DNA from: Tubiluchus corallicola
Taxonomy: Eukaryota; Animalia; Priapulida
Assembly (NCBI GenBank): GCA_030141605.1
Contig: JAQGDQ010000036.1
Location: 930,001 to 994,000, forward strand
Length of the DNA stretch: 64,000 bases
Reading direction: 5' to 3'
How positions within the stretch are numbered: position 1 is the first letter of the stretch; the number at the start of each line of letters is the position of its first letter. Positions 6,443 through 28,100 of this stretch are shown here, in pieces. The notes under the pieces are model-generated. The model saw nothing but the letters and a program-made list of their open reading frames with translations, did no database searches and had not been told where the DNA came from. The position numbers and the translations under genes were made by a program.

Positions 6443-8827
6443 GTATAAATTATTGTAAGCATTATTGTAGTTACTTCCATAACAGAATCGCAATCTTTTG
6501 ACATTTAAAAGCAATCTACGAACATTTGCATTATGTAATGTGATTCATCGAATTAAGTTAGGGCATTTTAAGACTCTTCTAAGAAAGAGTTTAAAAAATC
6601 GGATAAACAACAATAATAATAGTAATAATAATAAAGAATAATAATAAATAAACGTTTGATTTCCAATAAGATTCTGCAAGTATTGCAGAAGCTTATTTAG
6701 ATACATTTATTGCCTGCTTTCTTAATCAGTAATAATCGTACTAAAATTAAAATAACGTTGGCAAATTGAAATAATTTATATCGTTGTTAGAAACCTTGCG
6801 AAAATGACAAGAGTTGTGGAAAAGGAAAATACTGCGACAAACACTACGGTACTTGTGAGCAACACAAACCGTTAGGAGTTTTATGCAGGAGAGATGGGCA
6901 TTGTCAAAGAGGGCTGGAATGTGTTTTTGGAAAGTGTCGACATAGAATACCCGAAGGATACCTAGGTAAGCATTTAGCAGTAAACACCAGACTACCAAAC
7001 GTATTCTTGAGCAAATTATTTCGATAAATAGTTTTGTTAACTACAAATATTAAGGCTGTCCACATGATATAGGAATCATGTTGTGCATAGGAAACCCCCG
7101 CAGGGATTACATCTATGGTTATAGGAAGGATGCATGGCTTCCCATAGGCAATGGACGAGAATCCGCAATGAACTTTTTTATCATACAATTCAGCATTCTG
7201 CAGTCGGGAACCAGCACTCAGTGGCATACGACTATATGATGTAAAACAGTTGTGTTCATAACGAAGGCGTTTTAACAGACGGCAGAGGACTGAGAGGAGT
7301 CACGTTTGGACGCGTTTACATCGTTCCCCAGCGAGAGAAACAGTTCGTTGAAAGAGCGTATGTAGTATGTACACAACTAAACCAGGGTGTAAACCAACAT
7401 CGCCTTGGAGGCCTGGCTTGGAATTCCACTGCTTGCTCCAACTTTGATCGGGGCTTAATACAATCAAAGTATTAAAACACGTGTGAAGAAGTGTCATTAA
7501 AAATATAATTACTGATTTTGTTCAAGCCAAATGCACTAAATCTATAGATTCATCTATTCATATTAAAGTCATTCAGATTTTGAAAATACAGTTATTGCTT
7601 TCATTACAGACTATAGTGAGAATTACAGAACGCTTGCTTTAACAAGTTGGGTATAGCCGTGTTGTCGGGTATTTCGCCAACCAAAAAATTGCAATTTTGC
7701 AATCGGTCATTCAACTTGGTGTTTCATCGATCTCGTCAACTCAGCAGTCAACCAGCTAAATATCATCCAGCCGACTGATAAGCAAATAGCTTGCTAACCG
7801 GTTAGTTAACCAGCCAAGTACCAGCCAACTATAGGCTAGACGACATGCATTTTGCTGTCAGCTGACGAACTAGACAACAAAAAAAACAGCTATTTGTCAG
7901 CCTGACTTGCTAACCATCAATCAATCATGCCAAAAGACCATTAACCAAGGAAGCAATTAACCGACTAACCGATTGACCAACAACCGCCCACTCATTAATA
8001 TCTGAAGTGATTGATAATCAGTCAACCAATTAACAAACGCAACCAAATAGCTAATCAGTTGCCCGAATTAGATCTTTAATAGCTCCCAATAACTTGTCGT
8101 AGGTATAGGCCTATATCAGCATGTTTTTTTTATAAAATCTTTTAATATATATTTTTTAATTGTAGAAGCTCGTTGTAAACATGATAGTGATTGTGGACCC
8201 AACCAATGTTGCGCCAAACAACATGGCGAACGAGTCTGTAAAGCCAAACTTGCAATAGGAACAAAATGCTATGTTCCTGATGGAGGAGTGGACTACAGTC
8301 TCAATCAGCTTTGTCCATGTGAATCGGGCTTAGTGTGCAAATACAGGCCAAGACAGAAACGACGAGAGTGAGTAAAAGTTTCTCATTTCTCAGCTTACTT
8401 ATTCACCAGTTTTATTATTTTGAGAATCCTGCACTTAATAGTTAATGCGAATGATACGATTGTAGGCCTGCTTAACCCATTTGGTATAAAATTACTGTCA
8501 TCAGAACAATACATGGTTTATAAAAATATAATGCAAGTTTAAAAACAAAATTCGCCTTTAAAATAAAACTTAAGAAGATTTTATTGGTAAGCAGGTTTCA
8601 TTCAGTAAGACTTCTTTCATTAATATGGTTTTGGAATATATGCTTGAATGCAGATATAAACTTGAAAATTACTCTTTAATATTTCACCAGTTTTACAAAG
8701 AGTACTGACTTGTGCTCGAGGCTTCTAAAAGCTTTCCTCACAAGCTTTTTTTATTTTTGCTAGGGAGGAGTTCGAATGGCAGTTTTGGACAGACTACGAA
8801 GACATGAGATGTGTTCCAGCATTATGA
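6221..8827 (+). CDS. DKK3: Dickkopf-3-like secreted protein, 4 coding exons (6221-6442, 6791-6965, 8166-8367, 8764-8827), 220 aa
   Basis: Signal peptide MDMKIIFLLALLELCAAQG. GT-AG introns in phases 0, 1 and 2 give one open frame of 663 nt. Cys-rich domain 1 is CENDKSCGKGKYCDKHYGTCEQHKPLGVLCRRDGHCQRGLECVFGKC. After a short linker, the colipase-type domain 2 is CKHDSDCGPNQCCAKQHGERVCKAKLAIGTKC...LCPCESGLVC...MRC. Two Cys domains joined by a short linker is the Dkk3 arrangement. Orthology was assigned by recalled similarity only. Confidence 0.8.
6791..6965 (+). CDS. DKK3: Dkk3-like exon 2 (Cys-rich domain 1)
   Basis: gttgttag|AAACCTTGC...TACCTAG|gtaagc; translates KPCENDKSCG...CRRDGHC...CVFGKCRHRIPEGYL. 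Confidence 0.88.
8166..8367 (+). CDS. DKK3: Dkk3-like exon 3 (Cys-rich domain 2)
   Basis: ttgtag|AAGCTCGTTGT...CGACGAGA|gtgagt; translates ARCKHDSDCGPNQCC...CPCESGLVCKYRPRQKRR. Confidence 0.88.
8764..8827 (+). CDS. DKK3: Dkk3-like exon 4 (last Cys and stop)
   Basis: ttttgctag|GGAGGAGTTC; translates EEFEWQFWTDYEDMRCVPAL* and supplies the tenth Cys of domain 2. Confidence 0.82.
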
Positions 8828-11800: not shown

Positions 11801-12994
11801 ATAGCATATTGAAAAAGGCCTGACAAAATGTCAATTTTGTTACCAAATCACAACATGTTATAATGTAGACAGTGTTGAGTTGAATGTGTGCTGTACATAT
11901 TTAATTAATGCCAGATATATTGAATGGTTTCTTTACAAAAAAAATAACAGTCTGCACTCTTCCAGTTTTACAAATGGTTTATAAGTTACTCTAGTATTTT
12001 TTTTAGAAAAAAAACAAGACTGTGAAAGTTCTCCATTTTAGGACTAAAATTTCCCCAGTTTTAGAATGATATGGAAACACAGCCTTAACGGAGCAAAAAA
12101 GCACTTGGTTACATACTCTGCATCGTTACTAAACATAGCAAATTATATGTATATGTCAGCATGTATCATTACAGTTATGTATGGCCAAACTTAAGAATGA
12201 AGGCACCTCAACTGAAAACAGTAGCAACGACGCAATTAACAATAACAAACTGTATTTAAAAAAACTTTCTCATTAATCCCGATTACAAAAAAAGTTTATT
12301 TCGTAATACTAAATATTGGCTTATTGCACTACATACCACATTTTCTACAAATTTTACCAATTCCCACAAATTTTTTAATTGCTGAAATGAAATCACTTTT
12401 TATTTATGTACTATTTTAATGTTTACTTCACAAATTATTATGGTACAATGAATCAGCTTCATATTTTCTAAAAACTACTTATTTCAGTCTTCACATTTCC
12501 CCCAACCTAATCATCAAAATAAAAAACAAGCATTTGAGAACTTACCAAATTAAAAGTTACGTAGTACATAGGTAGCAAGTTGACAAATGTTATAAAATGT
12601 GATTCTTACACATAATCACAATTTTTTTGTATACAACAGCAATTAATTTTTAAAGGCTGAGCTCCAAGTATTATCACCATTGCTATAAGTGGCAAACCTG
12701 AGCATGATTCAGACTAGAAATTCTAATCAGTTATATGTAATTGCTTTCCCAAGAGCACAGAAGCAACAGCAATACCAAGAAAAGAATGTTATTATGCTAT
12801 ACTAGCAGATTAACTTGCTAGTTAAATTGGCTGCTGGCAATTTATAATAACATCAGTAATCAGTCAACAGCAACATAAGATTTGAATTGATTTCTACACT
12901 GATAGTTCAAGTATCATCGGCATCTTTGGTTGCCATTTTTAAACACCCATTCATGTTTCAGTGGTGTTGAGCATTTCAAGGAATCCAGGCACAA

Positions 12995-13147
12995 TCAGCG
13001 AAGATGGTTGTTTGTTTGTTTTGGCTTACTGTTTAACTTGCCATCAATATCATTGTGACTGGTAGCGATCTTTTTGATGTTCTGATTTTCTTCTGGCTCA
13101 CCAGATGAAAGTTCCTCATCAGACGAACTTCGGTCGTCCTTTTGTAC
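12995..13147 (-). CDS. CERS: CerS last coding exon (acidic tail)
   Basis: ttaaacag|; translates VQKDDRSSSDEELSSGEPEENQNIKKIATSHNDIDGKLNSKPKQTNNHLR*. Confidence 0.9.
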   Translation of the reverse strand, partial: VQKDDRSSSDEELSSGEPEENQNIKKIATSHNDIDGKLNSKPKQTNNHLR

Positions 13148-16100
13148 CTGTTTAACATGGATTAACAAAAGTTAATAATTAAGCCGAAGCAGCTAAAAAA
13201 AGATTTTCAACAATAGCGATGACTTTAACTGAGACAGCAAACTTAAGAACACAATTCATGTGCACTAAACTAGTGGCAGGTACAGTATAAACTATGACTT
13301 CCAGTGTTTGTTTGTTTTAACTGTAGGCCTACATATACCACTGCTAACCTGTATACCTAGCATACAAGTACGTAAGTTTTTACATTGACTTTAGCATCAA
13401 TTATACATTTTTACTTAATTTTATTATGTTAGCTTTCATAATTATTGCAAATTTATGGCATAAATGGTTAACTAACATTAATATGACAAAAATGCATTTG
13501 GCTAACTTTGATACAGGTCTCAGATTGTACTTTGACAAAGTCAATGGTAAGTCTTTGTCAAGACAGTGTTTAGGAAAATTGACTTTAAAACTATCATTGT
13601 ATCGTCAAAACTTTCAACTCATTGCTGTAATTATGTGCATAAAACATTCTTGTTAGAATGTTTACCTTTAAAACTCATCAAAGTGCTTATCCTACAGGAA
13701 AAGATTAAAAATTCTACATATTTATAACTGATATCACATCTTGTAACAGAGACATTTCAAAGACATTCAGTAAACATTCAAGAATCTAAGTTCACATAAC
13801 ATGGCAAATTTAATGTAAATTTCTATTTAAGAAGTTTTATCATTCATAATAAATACTACTACCTTACCTTGAATAATAAAGATACTGGCAACCTAATTCA
13901 AAAAACTCCGACTACATGGAAAAAAATAGCAAGTTTCCAAACTGTATTGAAAAATTCATATAAACTTTTGGTTTTCTGTTTTGCATTTGGTCAAAATATT
14001 TGACTAAGGATGCAACAACACTATTTGGAATTTTTTCATAGCTAAGCGTCTACATAAGAACAACATTTAGATTATTCCTATTTTCTACTTTTCCTTATAT
14101 AATTCTACATACTATCTATTTTTCATTTACTACACAATTTTTAGTTCAGCACAACATGCAAACAGACAATGAAGCTTTCAAAGAACCCAAGTGTAATCTT
14201 TTTACATTTTCATAAATATAGATAGCAGTCTGAAAAAATGTGTTAAAAACAACAGGTTGACACTGATATAAATTTTATGCAAAACTGCAAAGAAAAAAGG
14301 CAATTAAAGTTGGTAGCACTTACAGAGAAAGGGCTCTTATTTTTGAAGTCATCGCAAATCATTAAATGTACACAAGTAAAACTGATAAAAAATAATGTTC
14401 ACTTATATAGTCCTTTTCATCGAATTTCGAAATTTTCATAAAAACTCCTGAGAACTCTGAAAGCTTCGTACAATACATAAATACGCCGCAGATTCATGAA
14501 GAGTTTGCTGATAGATTCACACTGGGTTCTAACAAGTGTTTTCTTTATAGCAAATAGGCAAAGGATTAGACAAAGGGAGTGATACCAATTGCCAATACAC
14601 CTACAAACGTTTTCTTCTCTATTCTGTTGAATGTTACAGCCTGATAGTAAAATTTACGTAATTGATGGTAATCAATAATTTAGGTTACACGTTTTTTACT
14701 TATGCTATTCAAGTTGATTGCTTTAGCACAGAACTAAAGCCAGGCTATTTTGAATAGACTAATTTTCAAAAATTATATTTTTGTATATTTATGAATCACA
14801 AGTGGCATTGTATGCAGTGCTAGAGCATACCAAACAGGTTGCATGTCAAGCAGAATTATTGTGACCAAGCATTGATCCCGGCCCTAAACTTTTCTTTCAC
14901 TGGTTTCTTGCTATTTTTTGGGGGTGACCAGGTCAAAATTGACCCTACTAATACGAATTAACACTCGCCAATCAAAGAAAACAGCTAGCATTGTATATTT
15001 AAGGTTTAAAATATTATCAGGCTGGCATTCAACAAGTAAATTAATTAATTAAAGTAATTAGACACATTTTATGACACAATAAAATGTACAGTTAAAAGTA
15101 TACTCATGCATTGTGCTGCTACAACCGAGAGGCTACCTGTATTACTGCCAGAAGTACTTTAGAACCATGCTTTTTTGATAGACATCCGTTGAAAGAAAAC
15201 TGATCAATAACTGCTGCTGAGAAGAAATAGGCATACATTGACGGAAAGGCAAAATAAAATGATTTGTACGATAGACGCAACACGACAAAAATATCCCACG
15301 ATACACGAAGTAATGCGAGCATCAGTGACCACTATTTTCATGAAGCAGATTCATGCAGAAATAATAATAAATTTAGCCAGATGTGGAGCGATGTAATGAT
15401 AAATGCGTAACTTCTGTGGAAAGTGAAAACAAGGCGAGGCAGTGTAACAGGGTAGCAGCACAATACATGCATGAAGCTCATAATTTCATTAGCCTCAATT
15501 AGTTAGCATCTAAAAACAACCAGTCTACTGGCACAAAATTAAACTCTATGTCAAGGTCAATTTATGCAGAAATACTCTGTTTACGCCAAAAGCGCATTTT
15601 TAGCTTGTTATATATAAAAGTTGCAATGGCAAATGTTGAGGAAGTTCTGCGGAAGGACAGCTAAGGGAAAAAGAAACAGCACAAACTGCAAGCACAAGAC
15701 AGCATTGACATCTACCAGCTAAAACTCAAAACAAATGCAGTATCATTTTGCTTTGCTATTCTGTACCATATTAAAGGAACAGCAGTCGATCACACCACCA
15801 CAGTACTGCCAACACCACAGTAAGAGTCAGTGTTCTTATTTGAACCTGCCCTAGTGTAAACATGCTGAAAAAAGCTGCATTCTTCACCAAGTAAAACATT
15901 CCCTTAGCATTTGTCTCACGTCAAAGTTGTTCAAAAGGGTCTTACGATCATTTTATAAATTACATTTAAGAACATTCAAAAAATAGTTTTCTATAGAAAA
16001 TGCACAGATCATCTTTGCACTGGCATTTGAAATATAAAGTACTGCCTAGTTTTGCATAACAATTTCTGATTGTGGTACTGACAGTAAGGTGTGATGTTAC

Positions 16101-19100
16101 ACTCAATCTACCTTACATACCTGACCGGCTACGGTTGCAACATAAGCTATTTTGCATATCATATAGAACCATACTAAGTGGAGTATTTGCAGGAGAAACA
16201 GGAGAGCGAGGAAAAGCATTCGTGATTTGAATTCTCCAATGATGACATGAGCTTCAAACATGACTGTGCGTAATATCCTGTAGGGAATGGAGGCAAAATT
16301 TATGAGTAATTAGGAAAGATCGGCATACTGTAAAGACTTATGCAGTAAGCATTTCCTGAAGTCATGGATGTTTTTCTAAAAGCAAACAAGCTGAGCACAA
16401 GCTAGGAATCACATGATAGCACAAGTTTTCTGAAGGAGAATACAAAGACAGTGCAAGGTAGAAGTCAGGAAAAATAGTTTAGTTTAGCAAAATAAGTGCA
16501 AACAAAACAAATTAATTGCATAACTTCATCGTGATATTTAACAACATGTCATAAGGCATTAGTATAAGCGCAATTAAAAATTTATGCAGATGAGTTATTA
16601 TGAGGCATGCATAATTATTATGTGCAAGAGAAGACATGTGACATTTAGCCTTATAGTAAATTAAGCTTTATTGTAAACTAAAGCAAAAAATGAGTCCGTT
16701 AATCATGTTCTTGTTGCACTGGTAATATAAAATCTATGCTCATTCAAACAAAGTATTGATCAAGCTTTCACCCTAACAACCCAGTATCAAGGACAATGCC
16801 ATGTAACTATACTGTACAGAACAACTTAGTGTGTGGGTGCACCATCCAATATTTAAGCACATGTACCAGTGAATGGATAAATATTGATCCCAGCACAAAG
16901 CCCACACTGAAAGCTACAAAATGGAAAAGTGTTCTAAAAGCACATAATTACGTTTTTATTATATTTGTTCATGTGAACTATACAGCGTAAAGTATTAGCT
17001 AAATAGCTGCATTATATTCTAATAGCAAAAATTATATGAAAAATAAGTATTTAAGTGAAAAAGTATTGTATGTCATGAGAAACAAAAAATATTGAGGCCA
17101 TTATAAATCGAGTAATTTTATTATCCCTCTATTAAACTGGTGTATTTCAAATCCTTGCCTTGGAAACAAACTGTTCCACTAGCTGTCACACTTTTTAGCT
17201 ACAGCAAGTTAAATTGCATTGTAACACCAGCCTTATGAAGTATTAGCTTGTGCAGCAAATAAACTGAAATAACACATTGCATTTTAAAAAATGGCATGCA
17301 AAGATACTGTACTAATACACACATAACAGTTAAATAAATGGACAAATACACATTGACAAATGGTTGTAACAGCAGTAGATAATGCGGACATGATCAGCAG
17401 ATTTATCTTGAAATCATCTGTTCTCCAAGATGCAGTAGCCAGCACGGTGGTTGGCGGCACGGTACATGATAAACAGTACCTTCTCCAGAGGCCTACCTTT
17501 CCAAATCGAACTGCCTTAACAGCTATCGCCATAATCATTACGAACCAGATGATATGCAATATTTGAAGGACAACCAGCAGGGCATTGTAGACAATATAAG
17601 CCGAGAATACAGACATGTTGAGCAACACGTGTGCAACGGTCAATGCAAAATATAGAACCCTACAGAAATATTAAATAGCATATCACATATATGCACCATA
17701 TGGCAGTAGTTACTAACGTATTACATGAAAACTCTCAAATGTTACACCAGACCACAGTTTCAACATTTACAATAAAAAACGATGTGTAGTTATTATTCAC
17801 AATTTGAGTTTATGCATTTCCAAAAGTCACATGCAAATTAAGTAAAGTGACTGTCAGTCACTGGCAAGTGGAGAATTATTAGTTACATGATATTTAAAGT
17901 AATATTATAAAACTTACGGAAGAAAAACATGTTATCCCATTTCATTACACAGAACACGTGCACTATTAGCAAAAATTAGCATCTAGCAGTGACAACCAAA
18001 AAGCATGCAGTAATCTTAAGACAGTGAAATAAGGTTGGAATGAAGGAAAACATTCAAGATAACAACGAATAATAATAAAAAGCTAAAGAAAACAATGACA
18101 TGCCACATTACACCATTTTTTAAATTTGCCCAAAAAACAAATTGCTTGCATTTTTTTGCAGTTTTTTACCAATTTTCGCTAGGAAATGAAAAACTAAAGA
18201 CATAGATAACGCGAATATGTTCATAAAATCTGCAAACATGACTTGAAGCCCAATTACCAAACAATTAGCACAATCATTTGAACTTCAGGAAAAACTAAAC
18301 ACATCAGCCGTAAAATACATAAATAAATAAAACCATAAACAAATATTTACATTAAACTTTACTGTGCATTACCATGACCCAGGTCGTGCATTGGTACAAT
18401 TATCTATTAAAACATTAATGACAATATAAAATTAATAACAGGCAATGACAAATATAACAAATTACTTAACTCTATACCATTTTTCAAGCAAAAAGATGTA
18501 GTTAATTAAAAATTAATGACTGTCGTAAAAACAAAAAATCAATTTAAAAAATTTGAAAATTTTTTAGTTTACTGATACAGTTATTATTGCAGAATATTAA
18601 TTTACGTTTTAAAGAATCAGAAGGTCCCAGATGTAATTTAATTTTATAATTTAAATTATTAGCAATAAAAATTGGTAATGCATATTGCTATATAAATAAA
18701 AAATTTTACCTTACAGGGAAGATGACTAATCGAGTGATGAACCATACAACCGTGAAAATGATAAACATTAGATCACACAGTTTGTCCAAACGACAATATT
18801 TGGCCATTTTTGCAGCCTAAAAAGGAAAACAATATTAGCACATACTTTATCTACTAGTAGACCTATACTGTGCAAAAATAAGAAAGGAGTTGCATTGTAT
18901 AGGCTGTTATCAATGCAGTAAGAAAGAACCTAATCGGTGCAGAAGTGCCAGAGTACCAGTTTTTGAGTTTTCTGAATAATTTTGCCTAAAAAAGACCAAA
19001 TCTATATTTCTAGTAACCCAGCCGAATCTGGATGCAATAAACTCATTATTTGGTGAATTATTTATTAGTTTGTATTCTTTTAAACCTATCAAGGTTACAA

Positions 19101-22100
19101 AGAAAGTTTACTTTTGGAACTGCATAAATTAAACGTTGTGATAAATAAATATCACTTTCTAGCTTTATATTAATTCTAAGTCACATTATTGTTAATAGTT
19201 CAATAAATATTTTGATGTGGTTTAGCTTTTTATTTGGTATAAAGCCCCAGTAGGAAAGAAAAATGAAGACAGCATTGAAGAAACAATACTTGGAAAACTA
19301 CACAGTTTTTTGTTATTATCTGTGCTAAGCGGTTGACTGATTCAAAGTCAAACTAAACCTTCATTTAAATATAAGCTCTTACAACGTATTATGTTACAAT
19401 GAAAACCAAACTGAAATAATTTTACCATAACTTACTGCTAAATTTGTTTTGTTTAATTTTTTGTCCTTCGTTGTTTATGGTAATAAATTTGAACACCTGC
19501 CATTTTTTCATTAAGCGAGACGAATGACGTAATCTGTCCACTACGGAGTGAATTTTTTTACACGTGAGTACAACTTAATAACCTTCGGTTGCCATGCATT
19601 TGCATAAAGAATGCGATAAATGTTGTGTATTTTATGGCTTCTTTGCTGTTACTGTCAAGCGGATATATAGTCTAAACACTGTTTCACTACATTCATGAAC
19701 TTCTGGCTGTTCTGCTGACGTCCACTTTCTTGGGCATCGCGAGCTTTTATAGCCTCTGCACAAATCTTTGGATGTTTGTAACTGAAGTGCTGAAATAGAT
19801 TTTTTATTGAACTCATACTACACTGACTTCTTTCTGATACTGTCTGCAGATGGGTGTGTTGGTAAACGTCTTTCCAGTAACCAGACTTGTTTTAAATGGA
19901 AGTAATTCCAAATACAGATTTTAGCACCAGACTTTCTAACAGTAATGAAATCAAATTCCACTAGCTCTTTTTTGCAAAATAGTGTGCAGAATACTCAAAA
20001 CTTCATCAATGTAGTATGAACACTTGATATTAACTAGGTAGTGACACAATACACGTAGCTTTCTTGCACCCATTATGCATGGTAGGTTGGTTGTTTCTAT
20101 ACAGAACAATTGTTAGGTGATACATTGGTAATTATAATGATCAATTCTATAATACACTAATGAAACTTGAAATTTATTTTCAAACTGCACAAGTGATTTG
20201 GAAATCTTGGTAAAGCTTAGATTATTCAGTAGCGACGCCCCACCCGTAATGCAGTAGTCTTACCTCATCATACTGCAGGGGCTGCAGAAACAATCAGTTA
20301 TTAATGTACAATCGAGGAGTGGAGTAAAGGCTATTGAAACAGATTTAAATGCATCACGTATTGAAATTTTAGGACTCAGATAAAGAACTGCGACAAATGG
20401 AAACTAAACCTGTGCGCAATTTTAAATACCGTAATTATATTTTTTCACAATGTACATATTTACTATTTACCAGCTATCCTAACATAGCTCCACCTGTGCC
20501 AGACCCAAGTACAAACGCAGTCAACAATTTTGCTTCCCCAAGGCATCCATATTTTGAAGGTGATAAATGACTTATTTCACACTAACAGTGATTAGACTTT
20601 TGGTTAACTATAGAAGCTTTGTGTGCAGATTACGTAATTCTCGCGCACTTGTCAAAGTGGTGAAACAAGGAGGACTTCACGACAATATACACATTCTACA
20701 TGTACACGTTCTAAATCAGAGAGAAAATCGTAACTTGTTTCATTTATGATATTGTTTTATATTAAATTAACTATAAATTCTTTGTGTAATCATAATAACA
20801 TGTCAAAAAAATCTCATTGTCTGTTGGGGTTGTATAGGCCTTCAAATGTATTACTTGTATCACTTACAGAGTCAAGACACTAAACACTTTTAGCTTGCTA
20901 ACTATTGTTTAGACTGATATCAGCAAACCTAAAGAGTGATGATGGCTATCTGCCAATGAGATTTATACTTATGACCTTTTCAGTACAAAAATGTCAGAGC
21001 AAAATGTTATGCAACTGACCTCCATCCAGTAATCAACAGCATCGTGTATAACAAGCACCAACGTTCCAACTCTTATCATATTGCCAGACCACGAGAACCC
21101 CAATAATAATAATGTACATATATGATGAACAAACATTTGCCAGAAATCCTATAAAAAAAGTAAATATTTTTAACATACAACTGCAAGACACATTTAAAAA
21201 ACACATCCATCTATTAAATATATATATATATATATATATACTGTTACTGCTGTAGGTGGTAAAATTAATGCATTCTAGGAAAGTAAAGGAATATGGCATG
21301 AAAGCCCCGCACAAGAGTTTCCTACTACAACTACTATTAATAATAATTATACTACTATTGGCTCCTTTCAGCAGCATGCAGGCTTAATTTGATGGTGTTC
21401 ATACCGATTATAAAACCACAAAACACCAGATAATATTAGTAGTTAGTAGTGGCAGCACATGTGTTAAGGCATATTGATCTGCGCGCTGAAGTTAGTTTGG
21501 CACCCTAGGTCCTGGGAATTCAGTAAGAATACTCACTTTTCTTTTCACATCCAAGAACTGGGAGAATGTCAACGAAAGATAAAAACCCATTTCAATCATG
21601 TAGTACCAATAAACTTCACTAGATAATGGCTGAAATGGAAAATCTAGCCAACAGTACGTTGTATCCCAAAACCAAGGTTTCTGCAAAAAAAATCACATAA
21701 ACCAAGGTTACTTTGTGTATGACTGTGTAATACAATTTAAAATTTTACACATTGCATCAGTTACAGTAATTAATCCGTATTTTTTACCTACAGCTCTATT
21801 CAGCCACAAATTTCACTGGATGTAATTTATATGCCATAAGCATAGTAAAACAAAAATTAAACAAAGCAAGCAGTATATTCAGAATCTGTAAAATCATCAT
21901 ATTTGTGTGTATAATGACTACTTAAAGAAACTGATATTAAAAGAAAAAAATTATGGATACTTACATCCCATAATATGGCAAGTCCATATATAAAAGCTGA
22001 TAGGTAGTACGAAAATTTCCAACTGCAAAAATTAGAAAGAATGACAGCCATTCACATAAAAAACAAAATAAAACCAAAACAATATGTACAAAACATTAAA

Positions 22101-25100
22101 CGTGCTTTCCATAAACCGCAACCTAAAATATCATTGTATCAGGGGAGTAGCTCACTGCTGAGTAGTTAGTGTACATGACTGACTATAATAGTTAAGTAGG
22201 TGGGTTAGGCATCGAGTTTGGTTAACACTTAGAAGCTATGCATTAAAAAATATGAATTTCTCTAAAGACTGTGCAAAAATACCCATTTTAAGTGTTTGTT
22301 TATTTAGAAATTTGGTAAATATGCAAACTTTATAGTATAACATTTTGTAGACTTTTTTAAGCCCTAGACTATAATTTTGTTTATAATGATTTGGCTATGT
22401 ACGGTTGTCTAAATTATAGGCAAAAACTCAAATTTGCAAAAAATAATCCACACTTAAACAAAATATACAGCACACAGCTTTGATGTTTCAGCTAATTTCT
22501 CTGCTGCATTGAAATAACTCACATAGTGCCTATTTGCAAAAAAAATACAAAAAGCAGGATGCGCAAAATTTGGCCACTAGTTGAACTTTTCTAGAGAAAT
22601 GACCTTTTTGGGCATATTGCAAAAAGTTACACTACACCCTCTACCCATATTCTTCCAGCATGGTATATGCACGGTATGCATTCAACTTCTTTATTTGGTG
22701 ATTAGACAAGTTCTGTCATGTTCTTCCAGCATGGTATATGCACGGTATGCATTCAACTTCTTTGTTTGGTGATTAGACAAGTTCTGTCATGTTCTTCCAG
22801 CATGGTATATGCACGGTATGCATTCAACTTCTTTGTTTGGTGATTAGACAAGTTCTGTCATGTTATTTTACAACTTATCCATGTTACCGGTATCATGTAT
22901 GGCATCTACAGGCTTTCCTAGAAGCACCTTTATATTTGTTTACTAAGGATCGCACATGCCATCAGATAGCTTTTAAAAGTGTACTAAATGGATTGGTGAC
23001 TGTTTCTGGACAATTTTGCTTGACCTACTACCTCCAACTATTTATGTCGTTATAGGAGGCTGAGTAGACATCTGAACATGGCTGCTACAAGACACCTTTC
23101 CCACTTTAATGTCATCTAGAAGATTATCTTGGAATGTTACCATCCCACCACAACTATTCTATATCAGTACAGCAATAGCCCGACACAGTCGCTCAATTTG
23201 CTGTTGGTAAATGACAATGGCAGTAAATGAAACAGTTCAACAAGAATTTATTAATTGTTTTTTCAAGTCTGATAATCATTTAAATTATTAATAAAATTTT
23301 AAAGGCTTCCTTGTTCAGTTGTTTGGGAATTCAAAAGTTGAAATTATTCTAAAATCATGTAACTGAAAATTTCCTCCCCATGTTAATTCAATTTTTTTAA
23401 CTAGAAAACTTTTCAATAAATTTGAATAATGTGTGCACATAATTTTAGACAGCACAGCGTCATCTTTCTGCTCTACAGCTCTGTTTGGAAAGATTTGAAA
23501 TATTACTTAAAATATAAGATTTGATAAGTAGCAGTACTTCATCCAACACAATACTCACAATACCACATATGTACTATGTATGTTAGTAAACCAACAAGAC
23601 AAAAAAGCTGGTTTTAAATATCTTCTACTGTTTGTACAAAATGGTGCTACTGTTAATATCATTATTTAAGTTTTGTATTTAAAATCATAACATTTGGTAT
23701 AGTTTGATAATACTCACAAGCTTTCAGTAAATTTTCTTAGAATGCTTGGACGGTCTTGATTCCGTCGCTGACGAAACCATCGCTCTATCTGTCGTGCAGA
23801 CAAATCAAGTTGTTTGGATAAACCGACGACTGTTGTATGATTCGGCTTTGCACTTTTTCTATATGCAGCTTCTAGCTGTGGGTTTGCTGGTGCAGGTCGT
23901 TTCTTTACATCTTTTAAGTCAAATAGTTGTCCTACCCAAGTTGCTATAGTACTGAAACAATTAGTAAAGACTCAGATTATACTTGCTACCCAAATCTGAC
24001 AGATACACTCATCAGTAAGTGAGTGTGCGCAACTGCTGAGTTATAACAGCGGCAACAATACTTGCAATATATCAGATAATGGCAGTTTCAGACAGTACTT
24101 CCAAAAACTGGGACAGATGCTCTGTCATTTGATCAACTGCAGACACTGTGTCCTTCTCATGTTTCACATTTTCCACTGCCACTGCAATGACTGCACAGAT
24201 TATATCGGATCCTTTTATACATTTTAAATGGAGCTTTCACAATTTTGCTTATTTGGGCAAAAAAAATTAAGATAAAAGCTAGTTTTATTTTTGATTTTTT
24301 TTCTTGTTTCTTGTTGAAGTAGCACTTGCTTAATTACTTTAATTACTGATGCAGCCTAAAACAATGTAATATGCATCTAATACAATTCTTGAAATGTTAC
24401 ACACTCATGATGCCGAAACAATTTATTTATAAGCTGCATGCTGACAATCTGGAATTATATGTCTCTTGTTTAGTGACACTGAATCATTTATTAGCAAATG
24501 CTATAAACATTTTATTGTTTGGTCTGCACATTGACAGCTTCTACAGCTGCTCATAAATATGCTATACTACGGTTGGGACACGGCATTCCTCAATTACAAT
24601 AAACCTTAAATGGGGTTACATTGTCTGCTAACAATAATTATAAAGACAACAGTTTGTTTAAACTTAAACTTTTCTAAACATTGTAAAGATTAAGTTGCTA
24701 AGGTCAATCATTTTGTAAATGCGATTTTTTGCTGTTTTTATACAAAGTATAAAAATGCCAACTTGATAATTGTATGGCAATTTAGTCACCTCATTATGGG
24801 TTCATATTTCACATGTACGTTACTTGCCTGTTGTAAACTTTGTACTTTTAACTACCTGAACAGATTGCGTATCTTAAATTTGCAACCACTCTAAGCCAAA
24901 TGAATAATTTTTGATTTTAACTGATTTATAAAACATGCCATAAATTAGTAGATTTGCCATTTGATGATCCTACCCACAATTACAAATTTTTTAAGCATTA
25001 TTTAGATTAGGTGTATAAACTTACAAATATTCTTTTGTAGAGTAGTTCCTACCTCTAATGGTCTTAATCATGGCACGTACAAGTATCGCCAGGTTCTGCA

Positions 25101-28100
25101 CAAGACTAGAAAGCTGCGACTTTTTAAGCCATTATTAATTATTGCCTGAAAGCTATTTTTACTTTACTGCAGTCTCTCCGAAAAAAAAAACTTTACATAC
25201 AAAGTTATATTACTTGGCATTACGCTTACCTGTTTGTAATTAACTGGAGACTCAAGTAATTGGAAAAGAAAATTCTTAATAATTTAAAATGAATAATATG
25301 GTCAATGGTAAAGTGGTACTGTATCGCCATCCCAGTGTGCACTACTGACTTACCAAAAAACACATTATTAATCTTGACAAATAAAGCAATTTATACTTTT
25401 TTTGCTTATTGAGGGTAGAGTGTACATGTTAGACCAAGAGGGAACAGCGACTAATGCTCATATTATTTTTAAAAACTTCACGCAGTATTATTTAAACTTG
25501 CTTCAAACGATTCACCGGTAAAATGGCCGCACCTAATGGTCACCGAGAAACTTTAAATTTACAAGTTTTATACAGTGTTACCAGTGGCAGCACGTAGCTA
25601 AAATTACATAAAATTACTGGGGGTGCTGCTTTAGAAAATTTTCAGTCATTGTGTTAATACTGTGTAAAACGAAACAAACATATATAATTTTAATGTTGTA
25701 GATACGTTTGAAAATCAGGTGTTGAATGGCTTCTTTTCTCAACTGCAACTTTCTCATGGAGAGACAACTGTGAAAAATTAAGCTGTTGTACTTCACGCAG
25801 AACTTATTTCTTGGGAATGCAAGGCGTTCATTATTAAATAATTTATATTTTGAGCACACATGCTTAATTTACTCTTTATCACATCTAAGAATATGATGAT
25901 ACATGGTAAGCACGTGGCAACTGTTACTGTGATAGAGACAGTACTTTTCTACCTAACAGCAGATGCTAGCATACAGCGTGTTATCTCAGACATGTGCGAA
26001 TGGCCGCATGCGCACAACAGCCAAACACTATGTTGCTTGGGCTGTAAAGCAAATTGTACTTCCCTCACATGTTCCAGTTCCACACAAGTATAAAAAAAGG
26101 CTAAACGAAAAAACTTATTATATTGAATTTTATCGATGATGATGCGTGAAAACAGGGGGTGCTGCAGTACCTATACACGAGCCCCACTGAGCGTTACTGC
26201 TAATGCAAACTCTGTACGCAAATAAGGCAGCAAATAGGGGACACAAAATTTCAGGACGAATTTTAAAAGCTTTATTTAGGAAGAGTGTTTTCTTGTGCTT
26301 TAAGTTTCTGCATTTAACGATGGAATTTTTACTTTTAGTTAAAGCACAAGAAAACCCTCCACTTACATAAAGCATAAAAAATTTGTCTTGAAATTTTATA
26401 TCACTTACATACTGCCTTTTTAGCATGCAGGGTTTGCGTCGGCAGTAATGCTGTATAAAAGTTGTAAATTTAAACTCCCGCGATGATCGTTAGGCGCAGC
26501 AATTTTTATGGTGGATCGTCTGATACAAGTTCAGATAACATTGTGTGAAGTTTGAAAAAATAATCAGAGCATAAAATTACCTAAATTCGTAGCACACATG
26601 TTACTAACTAAGTAAAATTTTAAATTACTGTGTCTTGTGAATAAGATTAAAAATATGTTTTTGCTTAGTAAGTGGCGAACCCTGGAGGGTGAGTCAGCGA
26701 CATTTTACCAATTGGCACGAACATTTTAAATTATTATTTCTAGTTACATAAGTCTTTCCAGCAGGTAAGCGAAATGCTAAGCAATACAGATTTGCATGGA
26801 AAGTTTTTTGGGACATAATTTAACATTGCCTTTTCTTCCCCTGATTTACGTTTGCGTAGGTGACGTCAAGTAATAGCGCCGTTGAAACAGTATTGCGGGG
26901 GACTTAAAATGAAAACAAACAAAAATTCCTTTTAACGGTACCCCTTTTCTTGTCCTTTAAAGCATATGTTACAAGCAATGAGTAAAATTTAAACATTTTA
27001 TAAAATTTCTAGCCATTTAATGCAACACGTGTAATTTTGGGAAAAGTGTGAAATGAGTCTTTTTGGTGTGACTTTTCCACACTACCTACAAGCTTTATAT
27101 AATAGTTAGAATTTATATAACATAATGTAGTGACTTTGGCAAAATGTAACATGAACATAATTCGTGTGAAATAACACTCTTCCTAGACATTTTATACATT
27201 ACCTAGGCACTGTATCACGGAATGCACAGAACGACTTAATCATTAGGGCTGTGGAGTCGAAGTCAGAGTTGCTAAAAATTAGAGTTTTGGAGTCGGGACT
27301 TAGGAGTACACTTACTGTTAGAGGAGTCAGTACGAATAGATAAACTGACTGGAGTTACTTTGAAATTTTAAAACAATTACACCTAATTGTTATTAGATAT
27401 GTTATTAGATTGTTATTAGATTGTATATTAGATCACGCTAAGTAAATGTCTCAGCAAAAGTGAACTGCCGATTGTTGATGCTTAGGTGGCCCACGCTAAG
27501 TAAATGTTTCAGCAAAAGTGAACTGCCGATTGTTGATGCTTAGGTGGCCGCTTCTTACCCTGAGCAATTACAACATGTTGTTAGATACTTGTTGTTATTA
27601 AAAATATTTACACTATGTTTCAATTTGTTTATATTTGCAAATATCTGTGAAAAATTACCAGACAAGTATCAATTTATAATTACATGTATTATCATAGTTG
27701 AGGAATTCAACTTTGTCATAATTACCTTTTCTGGGAAAAATATTTCAGTGACATATTAACACTATTAGTGCTTATTTAGGCCTAGTAATTTTTTACTCAT
27801 TGGGTCATTGGCCTGACAAATGTCTGACAAGCAGAACCATAACACACAGGCATAGCTATATCCATTGAGACTCAAATTCGGAGAGCTTTAGCATAAGGAC
27901 TAGCCTGACAATTCACTTGGTAGTGATGAAATGCCACTGTAGCTAAATATGAAGAGTACTACAAACTATTATTTAAAGGCAGGAGTCGGAGTTGGAGTTG
28001 GGACTCCTAAAATCTTAGGAGTTGGATCTTCAAAAATTTTAGGAGTCGGAGTCAACAGGCGGACAGATCCTCTAAAATTCTGGGAGTCGGAGTTGGGAGT

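Follow-up and report, generated by a model that had tools for sequence, protein, structure and literature searches.

Mutually exclusive splicing guided by a docking site that lies downstream of the alternative exons has been described for Drosophila 14-3-3zeta exon 5 (with the elements IE1, IE2 and IEa), Mhc and MRP1, according to the accessible parts of the sources (PMC6071210, PMC4691838, PMC4174434). In these genes, as far as the accessible text goes, tandem homologous exons are each followed by a selector, all selectors share one downstream docker, and pairing loops out the downstream variant. Here we describe the same arrangement, predicted from pairing of the pre-mRNA, in a ceramide synthase (CerS) gene of the priapulid Tubiluchus corallicola. 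The gene lies on the minus strand of a stretch of 64,000 nucleotides (nt) of contig JAQGDQ010000036.1 (assembly GCA_030141605.1, positions 930,001 to 994,000), which we refer to as the window. Its alternative exons 7a and 7b are followed by selectors A and B, respectively, and the shared site (the dock) lies in the intron after 7b. The layout is identical to that of the model of Ivanov and Pervouchine (2018), in which, according to the accessible part of that paper (PMC6071210), an exon duplicated jointly with one arm of a stem-loop gives rise to two selectors and one docker, with the last selector forming a local hairpin. Unlike in that model, the CerS selectors have no detectable homology.

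The gene comprises eight coding exons that run from 30166 to 12995, and every intron is bounded by GT and AG. In-silico splicing yields a protein of 392 residues with exon 7a and a protein of 390 residues with exon 7b. The first is identical at 259 of 392 positions to isoform X1 of the Priapulus caudatus ceramide synthase 6-like protein and the second at 261 of 390 positions to isoform X2 (XP_014680864.1 and XP_014680865.1, which are RefSeq predictions), while the best homologue after P. caudatus reaches 184 identities only. The P. caudatus proteins (P0003/P0004) carry the Pfam domains PF03798 (TLC) and PF00046 (homeodomain), and the comparison with human CerS6 gave E = 1e-101. Judged by this homology and by the domains of the P. 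caudatus proteins, the gene is a CerS with TLC and homeodomain that is closest to P. caudatus, in agreement with its naming as CerS in an initial annotation of the window.

Exons 7a and 7b share their phases (2 at the start, 0 at the end) and are identical to each other at 21 of 54 residues. Exon 7a shares 37 of 54 residues with P. caudatus isoform X1, and 7b shares 39 of 52 with isoform X2. In a tree of 34 exon-7 stretches, which took in 30 of the homologous stretches, 7a plus isoform X1 and 7b plus isoform X2 each formed a starred clade, with no resolution on 7a and 7b as one clade. By this tree, the 7a/7b duplication predates the split from P. caudatus, and no older limit is set by it. The exon pair is already present in the RefSeq prediction for P. 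caudatus, which carries both variants as predicted isoforms. A contig of run X2 joins exons 5, 6, 7a and 8 at GT-AG ends and skips 7b. This 7a-containing join is the sole isoform in the one spliced run; exon 7b falls outside all run X2 contigs, which says nothing on its absence, and its inclusion is known from the P. caudatus predictions. The spliced contig and the P. caudatus isoforms, themselves predicted, bear out the exclusive pair proposed in the initial annotation, and 7a and 7b are genuine alternatives of which one is used at a time. A search with the 7a peptide gave no match among 19 candidates, and no orthologous loci were found in the metagenome contigs searched. Between the run X2 contig and the window, 7a showed no differences over 165 positions, against 16 differences over 373 positions in three other exon pieces (Fisher p = 0.004), which suggests a constraint on 7a at the nucleotide level beyond that on the protein. 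In run X1, which is possibly the source sample, the two longest contigs of the stretch cover the regions of 7a and 7b and differ from the window at 3 of 1,771 nt, none of them within the pairing elements.

Features of the CerS locus in the window, in the order of the minus-strand transcript (positions count from the first letter of the window; TM, transmembrane segment)
Feature	Positions	Strand	Properties
CerS exon 6	18710..18816	-	Constitutive, 107 nt, ends in phase 2; identified by translation, GT-AG ends and the spliced contig of run X2
Exon 7a	17497..17659	-	163 nt, 54 codons; spans the end of TM6, the TM6-TM7 loop (two residues inserted) and TM7
Selector A, register of the initial annotation	17445..17470	-	+27 to +52 after the 7a donor; -25.5 kcal/mol
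Selector A, better register	17430..17457	-	About +39 to +67; -30.3 kcal/mol; opening cost about 9-13 kcal/mol
A'	17359..17387	-	+110 to +138 after the 7a donor; -25.3 kcal/mol, 24 pairs with the dock
Exon 7b	16121..16277	-	157 nt, 52 codons; covers the region that 7a encodes, at the modal CerS length
Selector B	16071..16097	-	+24/26 to +50 after the 7b donor
Dock	15789..15819	-	31 nt, G/U-rich, with a 10-nt direct repeat inside; 300 nt into the intron after 7b
S2 5' arm	15437..15469	-	Duplex of -47 kcal/mol with 15104..15149; 28.6 expected pairs
Candidate cryptic/poison exon	15137..15413	-	277 nt, AG and GT ends, two in-frame stops; enclosed by S2
S2 3' arm	15104..15149	-	Overlaps the donor of the candidate cryptic exon
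CerS exon 8, coding part	12995..13147	-	Last coding exon, starts in phase 0

The sequences and coordinates of the dock and of selectors A and B are as the initial annotation gave them. The introns after 7a and 7b begin at 17496 and 16120, so that the two selectors start at +27 and +26. Reading of the sequence also reproduced the pairing claimed for selector B, with 8/8 plus 16/16 pairs against the dock, including 3 G-U pairs. Duplex energies were obtained with RNAduplex, and ensemble values derive from a partition-function fold of 17720-15700 (about 2 kb). The energy of B:dock was -30.3 kcal/mol for the 25 nt originally noted and -32.9 kcal/mol for the best 30-nt window, which makes B the best non-self partner of the dock among 63,970 30-nt windows on both strands (mean -11.8). 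This energy was matched by 17 of 2000 shuffles of the selector and by 7 of 2000 shuffles of the dock, and shuffling of the first 100 intron nt matched it once in 300 trials, for a pair that had been picked after the fact. In the ensemble fold B:dock contributed 24 expected pairs. Considered as a local stem, it ranks 10th of the 56 loci at or below -26 kcal/mol in the window and second on the CerS sense strand. The duplex is weaker on the antisense strand (-22.9 versus -30.3 kcal/mol), as a G-U-containing RNA helix should be, and neither the dock nor selector B has a further copy elsewhere in the window. B:dock pairing is clearly above chance in the comparison of duplex energies with shuffles that the initial annotation had called for. 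We also noted that 9 nt at 16046-16038 (minus strand), 25 nt after selector B, are identical to the middle of the dock.

Selector A in the register first noted makes 22 base pairs, interrupted by one mismatch and small bulges, and covers the dock bases that B uses as well. This much of the original description was recovered, and in the comparison with shuffles the register was borderline (-25.5 kcal/mol; matched by 101 of 2000 and 136 of 2000 shuffles, p about 0.05-0.07), with a better result for a shifted register. Specifically, the register 12 nt downstream (-30.3 kcal/mol) was reached twice in 300 trials when the first 100 intron nt were shuffled. Block shuffling of the entire inner intron reached it in 2 of 225 trials, once near the donor. 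In a scan made without reference to the dock, in which 238 windows of the inner intron were compared with the whole 3-kb right intron, the A region paired with the dock came out on top (-32.6 kcal/mol, next -26.4). The A duplex was also strand-dependent, at -30.3 kcal/mol on the sense and -17.7 on the antisense strand. Taken together, selector A appears moderately above chance. A second partner, A', lies farther into the same intron. Since A in both registers, A' and B all occupy 15819-15790, the statement that only one selector pairs at a time holds. When B was blocked in the ensemble fold, the dock shifted mainly to A' and partly to A. When both B and 7b were blocked, the dock made 22.1 expected pairs within the first 140 nt after 7a, a value that none of 10 block-shuffled introns reached near the 7a donor (maximum 13.9). 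The initial annotation contained neither A' nor the frame-shift of the both-exon product, the stem S2 and the role of the swapped loop in acyl-chain length, all of which are treated here.

With moderate confidence, we favour a right-docker switch in which A or A' competes with B for one dock and thereby helps to choose between 7a and 7b. If the dock paired with A or A', some 1.6 kb that include 7b and its two splice sites would be looped out, and the joining of 7a to exon 8 would be favoured. If the dock paired with B instead, the resulting loop would measure 250 nt, A would be shut out and 7b would stay exposed. In this 7b state, the skipping of 7a would need a second layer, such as splice-site competition or protein factors, and the decay of the frame-shifted both-exon product would be a likely backstop. 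A gap in the other half of the exon choice is also noted by the authors of the model in the accessible part of their paper (PMC6071210). The likely result would be a pair of enzymes distinguished by the loop that caps the acyl-chain tunnel. The layout would fit a duplication of the exon plus one arm of an ancestral intron hairpin, and only the equal offsets of +27 and +26 point to such an origin of the selectors, because their homology is not detectable. The competing docker/selector control put forward in the initial annotation thus survives in its exons, layout, overlap and strong B pairing, and it is weakened by the exact register of A, by rival sites in introns 4 and 6 and by the low occupancy of A at equilibrium. 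Donor masking, with a free selector folding back on its own 5' splice site, was considered and is not supported: it was seen in short local folds, but the change in opening cost depended on the length of the flanks (about -2 to +1 kcal/mol), and the free 7a and 7b donors were no more closed than other donors.

Besides the borderline register of A, several findings weigh against the switch. The dock is promiscuous: a site in intron 4 (21472-21443, minus strand) pairs with it at -30.0 kcal/mol and lies within 100 nt of a donor (one of six other donor-proximal 100-nt stretches), a site in intron 6 (18390-18355, minus strand) pairs with it at -31.7 kcal/mol over 36 nt, and six background loci in the window outscore A. 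The sites in introns 4 and 6, which match A in pairing strength, were counted as background. Once the cost of opening the target is included, B ranks 5th, A 41st and A' 73rd of 1,018 loci. All 10 shuffled inner introns captured the dock somewhere (10.5-23.3 pairs), and one of them exceeded the observed 22.1. At equilibrium, A has 0.01 expected pairs versus 24 for B, and this thermodynamic preference for B fits poorly with 7a as the isoform seen, in a single contig set that cannot show levels. The region of selector A has a GC content of 59% versus 34% for its intron, so that part of the score of A follows from its GC-richness, and 91 of 225 block shuffles kept their best site within 100 nt of the intron start. 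Homology between the first 77 intron bases after the two donors was not detectable, with 131 of 1000 shuffles scoring as high.

Many of these points would be expected if only B:dock were real, as a stand-alone intron stem that compacts the intron or helps the 7b donor, and if A were a chance match of a GC-rich, C/A-rich patch with a G/U-rich dock that pairs promiscuously. The choice of exon would then be left to splice-site strength, proteins and decay. The neighbouring stem S2, which is stronger than B:dock, indicates that this intron carries strong stems without a competing role. The reading frame also lends itself to such an explanation. Joint inclusion of 7a and 7b creates a premature stop 133 nt upstream of the last junction, and under the rule that decay is triggered by stops located over 50 nt upstream of the final junction, a rule whose use by this organism is assumed, decay could clear the both-exon product. 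Frame-based decay alone could keep 7a and 7b apart, without any RNA structure. However, when both exons are skipped the stop falls in the last exon, and decay cannot clear that product. Likewise, a chance match sits uneasily with the lead of 6 kcal/mol that A holds in the unbiased scan, with its advantage over composition-preserving shuffles, with the equal donor offsets and with the presence of two distinct partners in the 140 nt that follow the 7a donor. A lone B:dock stem is the main rival reading, and we consider it possible, though on the unlikely side. Other routes to exclusion found no footing in the gene: for steric exclusion, the inner intron measures 1,219 nt and the nearest branch-like motif lies 100 nt from the 7a donor, and for U2/U12 incompatibility, the splice sites have ordinary GT-AG ends throughout. 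In the accessible part of a human survey (PMC5740500), such RNA structures are described as usually poorly conserved across long distances, and 60% of the clusters as frame-shifting.

S2 is the strongest local stem on the CerS sense strand and lies 320 nt downstream of the dock. No inclusion of the 277-nt candidate exon that it encloses was seen. An unspliced contig of run X2 over 15309-15464 differed from the window at 10 of 156 positions, versus 19 of 112 in a piece of a 3' untranslated region. We rejected the candidate as a third copy of exon 7 (7c): tblastn gave E = 1.9 only, and an exon-7 profile of 135 homologue stretches, with the two P. caudatus ones left out, gave no match. Separately, the donor region of the candidate resembles the start of the intron after 7a. 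S2 may be a structure that hides a poison exon, or it may be a neutral inverted repeat. Structure-hidden poison exons have been described for BRD2 and BRD3 in the accessible part of PMC10789245.

Neutrality could in principle extend to all the pairings, which would then be left over from short inverted repeats or have arisen by chance, and would leave splicing unaffected. A stem that equals B:dock in strength turns up roughly every 13 kb of strand in the window, and S2 is nearly strand-symmetric (-47.0 versus -45.5 kcal/mol), as this explanation would have it. On the other hand, no local stems of the 18-kb pre-mRNA are stronger than B:dock and S2, which stand side by side right behind 7b, and B:dock is sense-specific, G-U dependent and made of elements with a single copy in the window. 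We regard a wholly neutral origin as improbable. A bidirectional system of the srp or RIC-3 type, with a left and a right docker and an extra pairing in intron 6 that loops out 7a, is very improbable, since the intron 6 site that could supply the 7a-skipping step (18310-18282, pairing at -24.8 kcal/mol with 16361-16332 just upstream of the 7b acceptor) and the best inner-to-left pairings in general (-26.4 and -24.8) are at the level of the scan background (-24 to -26), and no left site stands out.

The alignment to human CerS6 places exon 7 over the end of TM6, the TM6-TM7 loop and the sequence up to the end of TM7, covering the positions of Asn315 and Trp318. In the cryo-electron microscopy structure of human CerS6 (PDB 8qz6), this loop seals the acyl tunnel and determines the chain-length preference, as stated in the accessible part of the report (PMC11919693). 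The length of 7b is the modal one, with 52 residues in 71 of 133 aligned homologue stretches, and the loop of 7a has two extra residues and a different sequence. Because the swapped exon encodes the loop that sets chain length in human CerS6, 7a/7b splicing may switch the acyl-CoA preference, and with it the ceramide chain length. Mammals vary chain length through six CerS enzymes. A broader picture would be that one priapulid gene does this six-enzyme job by structure-guided splicing, with the loop swap giving two chain lengths and S2 hiding a poison exon that sets the amount of enzyme; we regard this combination as doubtful and offer it as a conjecture.

The remaining observations concern the rest of the window. 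The CerS introns hold two tandem repeats, one at 22646-22864 (71-nt unit, 3.1 copies, 98% match) and one at 27434-27549 (58-nt unit, 2 copies), and intron 1 contains a high-copy repeat region at 25100-28100 with very high depth in run X1 and several inverted-repeat stems. A cysteine-rich open frame at 8093-8371 on the plus strand, with a weak match to the prokineticin family (E = 0.00036, just under the Pfam cut-off), is likely an exon of a neighbouring gene that faces the CerS 3' end. The comparison with known RNA families over 12000-22500 returned nothing but one chance match to transfer-messenger RNA. Among the protein records, P0006 (764 residues) contains two near-identical complete CerS copies in tandem and is probably a fused gene model of duplicates.

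We found no account in the literature of a CerS docker/selector system or exclusive CerS exons, of schlank splicing, of P. caudatus CerS or of priapulid splicing, in a search that did not extend to most subscription journals or to the supplementary tables of exon surveys. The splicing mechanism itself is already known from insects, and what is new is probably the CerS gene and its occurrence in priapulids. If true, the switch would add a gene and a phylum, the priapulids, to the known range of the docker mechanism. The more useful and less expected point lies in the protein: isoforms identical in all but one exon would make it possible to ask cleanly whether chain length outside mammals is set by the loop alone, and the predicted chain-length switch deserves testing more than the RNA switch alone.

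Compared with 14-3-3zeta, Mhc and MRP1, the CerS switch concerns another gene in another phylum, and its upstream selector, with two registers and an additional site, pairs less strongly than the local selector. The insect cases rest on cross-species conservation and compensatory mutagenesis, as far as the accessible sources describe them, whereas the CerS case is known from the predicted pairings of one genome. In the accessible part of PMC7797038, human ATE1 likewise encodes an enzyme with two exclusive exons, 7a and 7b, competing intronic pairings and a further structure module. There, R1 and R4 compete for R3, as proven by mutagenesis; in CerS both exons precede the shared site, and the competition is predicted. 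The switch of coq-2 between ubiquinone and rhodoquinone, as presented in the accessible part of PMC7434440, resembles the CerS case in that the splicing of a membrane enzyme is tied to a change of substrate, with a different enzyme and a predicted substrate change in CerS. Finally, human CerS6 and the priapulid protein are alike in their TLC domain and homeodomain and in the position of exon 7 over the TM6-TM7 loop and TM7, but here one gene would swap the loop by splicing.

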